The notes beneath the pieces are model-generated. The model had not been told where the DNA came from, made no database searches, and saw nothing but the letters and a program-made list of their open reading frames with translations. From assembly GCA_046761065.1 (NCBI GenBank), contig JBHIFL010000041.1:1-38845 (forward strand): 38,845 bases of DNA, given 5' to 3'. The stretch's first letter is position 1, and every line of letters begins with the position of its first letter. Shown piece by piece: positions 5,075 through 9,478 of this stretch. The DNA is from Candidatus Heimdallarchaeota archaeon. GTDB lineage: Archaea > Asgardarchaeota > Wukongarchaeia > Wukongarchaeales > JBHIFL01. The translations under genes were made by a program, and so were the position numbers.

Positions 5075-5201
5075 GCCACCGTAGCTCAGTTGGTAGAGCG
5101 ACAGACTTGTAGAAGCCCAACTGCTTCATGACATCTGTCATGACATGGTAACATGTCATAGGATGACTTGGTCACGGGTTCGATTCCCGTCGGTGGCTCC
5201 A
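5075..5201 (+). tRNA. tRNA-Thr(UGU) with two introns (5112-5132 at 37/38; 5138-5167 at 42/43)
   Basis: Acceptor GCCACCG/CGGTGGC+T+CCA, D-arm GCTC/GAGC, anticodon arm ACAGA-CTTGTAA-TCTGT, T-arm ACGGG-TTCGATT-CCCGT. Removing 21+30 nt gives a 76-nt cloverleaf. Confidence 0.92.
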
Positions 5202-5288
5202 TTCCCTTTTCTCATCCATAGAAGATTTATTTCTGGGGATGTACCCACGACTTGGTGGGGGTGTTATCAATTCTCGTTTGGAGGGAGT

Positions 5289-5594
5289 TTAGTCTAACGT
5301 ATAAGGTTTTCCTTTCTCAAGTACCGTTTTAGGAACCTTACCTTTCCATTTTTTAAGAAAGCTAAGTTCTTCTTTTTTTTCCCGCAGTTTATCTGGCAGC
5401 ATACTTCCCCTTGCAAGCTAAGACACGCCTCTTGCAAGTTAAGGAATGCCGTCAATTACGGGATACCATCTGTCACAATCAGGACAAACGATGAGGGCAG
5501 CATCTATTTCTTCCGTTTCTTCGAATACATGCAATTCTAACCGTTCTGACTTACAGATTGGACAAGCAAGCAGTTCCATGAGTTTTCGTTTCAA
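5289..5594 (-). CDS. trm112: Trm112-family methyltransferase activator, split by a 36-nt intron (exons 5594-5440 and 5403-5289)
   Basis: Spliced translation from TTG: MKRKLMELLACPICKSERLELHVFEETEEIDAALIVCPDCDRWYPVIDGIP-Y-MLPDKLREKKEELSFLKKWKGKVPKTVLEKGKPYTLD* (89 aa). It has the LACPxC...CxxCxRWYPxxDGIPxMLP signature. Confidence 0.9.
5404..5439 (-). other. BHB-type intron in trm112 mRNA
   Basis: mRNA: CGGCAU UCCU UA^A CUUGCAAG-aggcgugucuuag-CUUGCAAG GGGA AG^U AUGCUG. Outer helix 6 bp, central helix 4 bp (UCCU/GGGA), two 3-nt bulges, inner helix 8 bp. The unspliced frame has TAA and TAG stops. Confidence 0.88.
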
Positions 5595-5815
5595 CCTATC
5601 ACCTCAAAAAGCATAATAGCTTTGGTGTAAGGAGGAATTGCGTCTTCTAATTTTAAAGGTTCTGCTCTTCAAAGCTATTATGTTACTGCGACTTTGATTA
5701 GTGGTTCATTTGGCTGAATGGTACGATGAGGTCAATAGCAGGGTTAAATGTAGGTTTTTCACTTGAACTTTATTTATATATCCTACCTATTGTTCTATAA
5801 TAAAGGAGATTTGAT

Positions 5816-9349: not shown

Positions 9350-9478
9350 TGGTAGCCCGGGGGAGATTCGAACTCCCGTCGCGGGGTCTCCTCAAGGTTT
9401 CACTGCTCAGTGGAACCTTCCAAAGCCCCACATGAATGACCTGTCAACCCTTTGTTTTGGCCTCTACACTACCGGGCT
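9350..9478 (-). tRNA. tRNA-Gln(UUG) with two introns (9436-9456 at ~21/22; 9388-9419 at 37/38)
   Basis: AGCCCGG/CCGGGCT+A+CCA (A1-U72, typical of archaeal tRNA-Gln), TGGGG-CTTTGGA-CCCCG, GGGAG-TTCGAAT-CTCCC. 129-21-32=76 nt. Confidence 0.92.

Follow-up and report, generated by a model that had tools for sequence, protein, structure and literature searches.

A predicted bulge-helix-bulge intron in the coding sequence of trm112 in an Asgard archaeon

The window analysed here is a whole stretch of 38,845 nucleotides (nt), contig JBHIFL010000041.1 of the Candidatus Heimdallarchaeota assembly GCA_046761065.1, and all coordinates are positions within it unless another contig is named. On its minus strand, at 5289-5594, lies a trm112 gene whose reading frame is broken by a short insert, which we predict to be an mRNA intron of the bulge-helix-bulge (BHB) type. 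The gene starts with TTG (5594-5592), and a Shine-Dalgarno-like sequence, GAGGTGAT, can be read directly on the same strand 3 nt before this codon (5598-5605). Exon 1 (5440-5594) comprises 51 codons counted from the TTG, which encode the four-Cys zinc-knuckle Trm112p domain, and ends with the UA of a Tyr codon at the junction. Its frame reads CPIC ... CPDC ... RWYPVIDGIP up to an in-frame TAA (5441-5439), which is followed seven codons on by TAG (5420-5418); the same frame resumes after 12 codons. Exon 2 (5289-5403) completes the Tyr codon with its first base and goes on for 37 codons, opening with MLPDKLRE and finishing in KPYTLD, before a TAA stop codon at 5291-5289. Removal of the 36-nt insert (5404-5439) yields a protein of 89 amino acids (aa), compared with 51 aa from the unspliced frame, and both gene callers and NCBI annotate the 51-aa stub alone. 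An initial annotation of this DNA, made by a model from the sequence, had described a conserved motif split by an insert with two in-frame stops and had given both protein lengths. Each of these points was re-derived from the sequence, and the coordinates and sequences reported for the gene and the insert were correct to the base.

The insert and its flanks form a complete helix-BHB-helix (hBHBh') motif spanning 5397-5451 on the minus strand. Folding of positions 5385-5460 with RNAfold gave a centroid structure that is exactly the canonical motif drawn in the initial annotation, with every helix and both bulges recovered. An outer helix of 6 base pairs (bp) joins CGGCAU (5451-5446) to AUGCUG (5402-5397), and a central helix of 4 bp joins UCCU (5445-5442) to GGGA (5409-5406). 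The central helix is flanked by two 3-nt bulges on opposite strands, UAA (5441-5439) and AGU (5405-5403). Within the insert, an inner helix of 8 bp pairs CUUGCAAG (5438-5431) with CUUGCAAG (5417-5410) and closes a 13-nt loop. The putative intron itself therefore begins with the third base of the first bulge, continues through the inner helix with its loop and GGGA of the central helix, and ends two bases into the second bulge. This order of elements is that of the BHB in precursor tRNAs. The 36 nt were assigned as a putative intron from this fold, from their absence in every uninterrupted homolog and from their recurrence in nine variants.

The assignment of the gene to the Trm112 family, also made in the initial annotation, was borne out by profile searches. 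Exon 1 matches Pfam PF03966 (Trm112p) with 48 bits and an E value of 1e-12, and scores for this family were 46-48 bits against a gathering threshold of 22; the 40-position profile stops near the break. NCBIfam NF038101 (Trm112_arch) was the best family match, yet the read-through translation scored 50.9 bits, below the equivalog cut-off of 77, and intronless orthologs likewise fell under this cut-off (61.4-61.5 bits). The N-terminus, MKRKL-MEL, agrees with homologs and with PDB chain 6zxw_H. The closest uninterrupted homolog, P0002, aligns end to end with the Trm112 chains 6zxw_H (E 3.8e-14) and 6f5z_C (Archaeoglobus, Haloferax).

Comparison with uninterrupted homologs defined the insert at single-base resolution. 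Seven such homologs of 86-94 aa span the whole read-through translation minus exactly the 12 inserted codons. P0002 is 71% identical by BLASTP, or 81% over aligned columns, and reads IPYMLPDK at the position of the break. Excision of 5404-5439 joins UA to U, builds a Tyr codon and restores IPYMLPDK, the same sequence as in the nearest intronless orthologs and as the initial annotation had proposed. When the cuts are shifted by one base, the sequence reads Cys or stop in place of Tyr. The zinc-knuckle Cys pairs, CPIC and CPDC, lie in exon 1, and the GIP-x-(L/M)LP segment that forms strand beta4 would be whole only after splicing.

The same interruption was found in a group of close relatives. 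The 90%-identity cluster of the stub contains nine sequences. Eight of them, counting the stub itself (51 or 46 aa), are truncated and end in DGIP; the ninth is intronless and is cut off after 55 residues. In the contigs of all truncated members, a 36-nt insert occupies the same position. These intron-bearing contigs derive from two NCBI metagenome-assembled genomes (MAGs), one of them named Ca. Heimdallarchaeota, from three ENA metagenome assemblies and from several Logan assemblies. A search of a metagenome collection with a degenerate DNA pattern added just one further locus, bringing the total to nine distinct intron sequences. Searches of 40 related genomes and of 80 genome loci met uninterrupted genes throughout, none with the insert. 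In a tree of 27 proteins, the intron-bearing sequences formed one group (support 91/86) within a clade (support 100/99) shared with the intronless cluster, and L127, the one intronless ortholog checked for gene order, is syntenic, lying in the same Ribophorin-ferredoxin-Trm112-PGK neighbourhood. This distribution fits either a single recent gain of the intron or its loss in the sister group. In one metagenome contig (L142:7690-7700), trm112 exon 1 contains NN and lacks about 17 nt, probably reflecting a scaffold gap rather than a real deletion.

Sequence variation among the relatives was concentrated in the loop. Across eight aligned variants, standard pairs occupied 99.3% of pair cells, the departures being one C-G to U-G change and one C-A mismatch. 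The BHB core, consisting of the two 3-nt bulges and the 4-bp helix, was intact in all eight, and also in the ninth variant, which has two mismatches. Variable columns made up 8 of the 13 loop positions but only 2 of the 20 paired intron positions (Fisher p 0.005). Nearly all of the in-frame changes in the loop alter an amino acid, and the insert is thus not constrained as protein. In the exons, synonymous sites within the helices were invariant and adjacent synonymous sites varied. Further, in the places where L127-L129, the nearest orthologs without the intron, read ACC (Thr) and CTC, genes with the intron read GGC (Gly) and CTG (window positions 5442-5451 and 5397-5402), a difference that extends the outer, exon-exon helix from four to six pairs. 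Together with the invariant synonymous sites, these changes are suggestive of an adaptation of the exons to the BHB motif.

Both exons are under purifying selection in the spliced frame. Summed over pairs of the eight variants, the ratio of nonsynonymous to synonymous variation (pN/pS) was 0.11 in the first exon and 0.19 in the second. Variable sites in exon 2 were distributed 6/5/21 over the three codon positions, such that 21 of 32 fell at third positions of the spliced frame. This frame was open to the same stop codon in every variant whose contig extends that far; the contig of L118 ends earlier. These selection data exclude a decaying pseudogene. Pfam matches to Trm112p elsewhere in the genome were limited to a methyltransferase fusion and TFB, with no second stand-alone trm112. 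An intact second copy coupled with neutral evolution of the present one, which would have argued against the initial annotation, was thus not found.

The insert was also recovered from per-run assemblies of the DNA. Contigs assembled per run from three vent metagenomes carried the locus with the insert unchanged and with 0-1 differences overall. Since these runs may be the source samples, they exclude only a one-off misassembly, while the diverged variants provide independent evidence. In a mangrove run, the region 5174-5662 was covered by a relative at roughly 85-94% identity, with contigs that stopped at 5390 and 5432. These contig ends, one beside the intron and one inside it, would fit the coexistence of several intron variants in the mangrove sample.

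The enzymes that would be needed for splicing are encoded in the genome, as the initial annotation had anticipated. An Asgard origin, which that annotation had considered probable, is supported by two observations: over matched stretches of 1284 and 1097 bases, a genome from the same GTDB order shows 100% identity to a locus from a 'Ca. Hodarchaeota' MAG, and a sister stub carries the NCBI name Ca. Heimdallarchaeota. The genome is 91% complete and encodes two paralogs of the tRNA-splicing endonuclease EndA (195 and 214 aa), each having the N-terminal as well as the catalytic Pfam domain, together with a single RtcB ligase (E 4.7e-160). By eye, the first EndA appears to keep the catalytic residues and would be an alpha subunit, while the second appears to lack the catalytic His and would be beta-like. 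The pair would then be of the heteromeric (alpha-beta)2 type, which has been reported in Asgard and TACK archaea and was earlier tied to pre-mRNA splicing (PMC5829648).

Taken together, these observations lead us to predict from the DNA, with a probability of roughly 0.8, that the trm112 insert is an mRNA intron spliced by EndA and RtcB. In the proposed pathway, the 36-nt insert, together with the 12 nt of exon 1 that precede it and the 7 nt of exon 2 that follow it, would fold as a BHB in the trm112 pre-mRNA. The endonuclease, presumably the heteromeric alpha-plus-beta EndA, would cut each bulge between its second and third nucleotides (UA^A and AG^U), after which RtcB would ligate the exons and probably circularise the intron. 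We infer these cleavage and ligation steps from the sequence, and they predict specific products. The spliced mRNA would have ATTCCTTA joined to TATGCTG, and the circular intron would have the junction GGGGAAG-ACTTGCAAG. Translation of the mature mRNA would give the 89-aa Trm112, with codon 52 (UA plus U, Tyr) built across the junction and WYPVIDGIPYMLPDK as the junction peptide.

Several observations weigh against this prediction. The folding energy is ordinary, with a z score of -1.16 and 24 of 200 shuffled sequences equally stable; stability alone therefore proves nothing. The fold by itself is also no rarer than expected by chance. When both strands of the 4.42-Mb genome were scanned at every site for intron lengths of 11-200 nt, with a decoy pairing rule as control, 1.68e9 site-and-length combinations gave 60 matches to an equally strict hBHBh' motif and 64 with the decoy rule. 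A looser definition gave about 47,500 matches against 53,000 with the decoy. BHB-like folds are thus common by chance in this genome. What counts in favour of the prediction is placement: the trm112 motif occupies the single site-and-length combination defined by homology, and the chance of this is about 3.6e-8 under the strict definition and 3e-5 under the loose one. The initial annotation had also proposed that relatives be compared for the intron and for compensatory changes. An intron at the same site was found in nine variants, but compensatory double changes were not: no pair was changed on both sides in the eight aligned variants, and support for the stem comes only from the contrast between loop and stem. 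The inner helix is imperfect in two variants (L122, L142), with the C-A mismatch noted above in one and two mismatches in the other, and is thus not strictly required. In addition, the outer and central helices lie partly within conserved codons, so that the constancy of the helices is not cleanly separable from constraint on the protein.

Purifying selection on both halves is also what would be expected if the gene were split and never spliced. Under this alternative, the insert would be an intercistronic spacer separating a 51-aa zinc-knuckle peptide from a 37-aa peptide that starts at AUG 5402-5400, and the two peptides would assemble non-covalently or one alone would be used. Exon 2 does open with ATG, with GGGG 4 nt upstream, and purifying selection on exon 2 is therefore compatible with its separate translation. 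However, this ATG encodes the ancestral Met of IP-x-MLPD, which every aligned homolog has, and so does not owe its origin to the insert, and the G-run is tied up in pairing within the central helix. A split at this point would fall in the middle of beta-strand 4, and the model leaves unexplained the BHB geometry, the conserved 8-bp palindromic arms around a freely varying loop, and the rebuilding of the Tyr codon found in orthologs. We therefore consider an unspliced split gene improbable.

Still less probable are two accounts in which no RNA is cut. In a programmed translational bypass of the T4 gene 60 type, ribosomes would take off at Pro CCU, skip 45 nt and land at Pro CCA; the stop codon right after the take-off codon, the hairpin at the take-off site and the synonymous Pro codon 45 nt downstream are all features that such a mechanism would use. 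The product of this hop would nevertheless lack Y-M-L, although no homolog departs from the M and the L; no other known bypass signal was seen, though no search was aimed at them; hopping has no need of a BHB with two bulges 4 bp apart; and EndA and RtcB, the enzymes for a simpler route, are encoded. Bypass is accordingly very improbable. The two in-frame stops, and the annotation of the stub alone by gene callers and NCBI, would suit a trm112 gene decaying after a disabling insertion, or a misassembly. Such an inactivated gene or artefact is largely refuted by the conservation data and is about as improbable as bypass: three per-run assemblies agree on the sequence of the insert, which recurs in nine diverged variants from different studies, pN/pS is low in both exons, exon 2 is open wherever the contig reaches its stop codon, and no other stand-alone trm112 was found.

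Splicing of the trm112 intron would determine whether a complete protein is made. Trm112 activates methyltransferases that act on tRNA, rRNA and release factors. In Haloferax, it forms a beta-zipper with its methyltransferase through main-chain atoms of P51 and L53 in strand beta4 (PMC6144793). These residues align to P51 and M53 of the present protein, and the intron lies between the two. The unspliced product would consequently break off at Pro51, partway along strand beta4. Since this is the partner-binding strand in solved Trm112-methyltransferase complexes, breakage of beta4 in the stub suggests that splicing is needed for a working activator, and the 51-aa zinc-knuckle stub is presumably inactive. 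It is tempting to speculate that splicing efficiency could gate the supply of the methyltransferase activator in a HAC1-like manner and could link it to tRNA-splicing capacity, as the initial annotation had suggested.

The proposal that more such genes are hidden in the genome was upheld in part. Short disrupting inserts were found in two other core translation genes. The EF-2 gene (G000 C76:15211-15825) has an in-frame 33-nt insert with a TAA between DTPG and HVDF in the GTPase domain, where it forms a 10-bp hairpin with bulges. In the gene for ribosomal protein uS5 (G000 C19:7180-7300), a short insert separates ...SLVQR from TDAGRK... and the reading frame shifts there; the Pfam S5 match begins only at profile position 9. 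In EF-2, excision at the bulges of the minimum-energy fold would remove 34 nt and fail to restore the frame, which needs removal of 33 nt. In contrast, the strict structure-first scan gave no excess over the decoy, and genome-wide no enrichment emerged when its matches were filtered for joining of open reading frames (ORFs), for short introns or for codon usage. Structure-first searching is without power in this genome and overlooks relaxed motifs such as that of EF-2. A BLAST search of the trm112 intron against the genome found no second copy, and thus nothing to indicate that the intron is mobile or has been copied.

The neighbourhood of trm112 contains interrupted tRNA genes. Within the window, ARAGORN found no tRNA gene and Rfam found two, both interrupted. 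The first lies on the plus strand at 5075-5198 (Rfam 53.7 bits), is convergent with trm112 and ends 91 nt past the trm112 stop codon. Its anticodon, read by eye, is UGU (Thr), and two inserts interrupt the gene, one of 23 nt within the anticodon loop and one of 31 nt ahead of the T arm. The second, of 126 nt, lies on the minus strand at 9353-9478 (Rfam 37.9 bits). In the whole genome (4.4 Mb), Rfam matched 12 tRNA genes, 9 of which were longer than 90 nt (91-132 nt), and most tRNA genes are probably too interrupted for detection. Among the relatives, the upstream Asp/Glu racemase gene appears as two overlapping ORFs in L120 and L123 (about 382-1271) but as one ORF of 253 aa in L122 (511-1272); these spans differ by one base, which resembles a frameshift rather than an intron.

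The closest parallel to the trm112 intron is the cbf5 intron of Crenarchaeota (Desulfurococcales and Sulfolobales; Watanabe 2002, Yoshinari 2006, Yokobori 2009, PMC2738675), which as of 2020 was the only case described in a coding sequence (PMC7714728). The putative trm112 intron resembles it as a short BHB insert in the coding sequence of an RNA-modification factor, and in both a hetero-oligomeric EndA is predicted to cut. Both also have a patchy distribution consistent with gain or loss in a narrow lineage, and both lead to mis-annotation by gene callers. They differ in that cbf5 encodes a pseudouridine synthase of Crenarchaeota and the present gene a Trm112 of the Heimdall/Hod group of Asgard archaea, and in that cbf5 splicing has been shown by experiment, whereas the trm112 intron is known here from DNA alone. 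The BHB intron in the 5' untranslated region (UTR) of Haloferax volcanii HVO_1309 (Schwarz 2020, PMC7714728) shares with the predicted trm112 intron its location in an mRNA, as a target of the archaeal splicing endonuclease. However, it lies in an untranslated leader and breaks no codons, whereas the trm112 intron splits a codon in the most conserved motif of the protein.

Similar comparisons can be made with systems outside archaeal mRNAs. BHB introns of precursor tRNAs have the same hBHBh' geometry and predicted enzymes, and the adjacent tRNA gene itself has two inserts, but the host RNA of the trm112 intron is an mRNA, and its excision must keep the reading frame. HAC1/XBP1 splicing in eukaryotes, carried out by IRE1 with Trl1 or RtcB, likewise removes a short structured mRNA intron independently of the spliceosome, with sealing by a tRNA ligase and a change to the C-terminal part of the protein. 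There, IRE1 acts on two stem-loops and the splicing is regulated, whereas EndA is predicted to act on a BHB in trm112. In the literature searched, BHB introns in coding sequence were reported only for crenarchaeal cbf5, in addition to the Haloferax 5'-UTR case, and none was reported for trm112 or for Asgard mRNAs. The proposed mechanism is the known one, with trm112 in Asgard archaea as a very probable new gene family for this extremely rare type of intron.

If the trm112 insert is spliced as predicted, it would account for the truncated 51-aa Trm112 that annotators report in these genomes. It would add a second gene family beyond cbf5, in an Asgard lineage with heavily interrupted tRNA genes, and the tRNA-splicing pathway would then serve mRNAs more widely than has been assumed. 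The 55-nt motif would be a clean and short substrate for Asgard EndA and RtcB. The case also has a bearing on how split protein-coding genes may persist in prokaryotes in which transcription and translation are coupled. A broader view, which we advance only tentatively and hold somewhat less likely to be right than wrong, is that this lineage has a whole set of EndA/RtcB-spliced introns in core translation genes, comprising trm112 and the candidates EF-2 and uS5, and that trm112 splicing acts as a HAC1-like gate. If true, such a set would mean that archaea closely related to eukaryotes process split protein-coding genes with their tRNA-splicing machinery.
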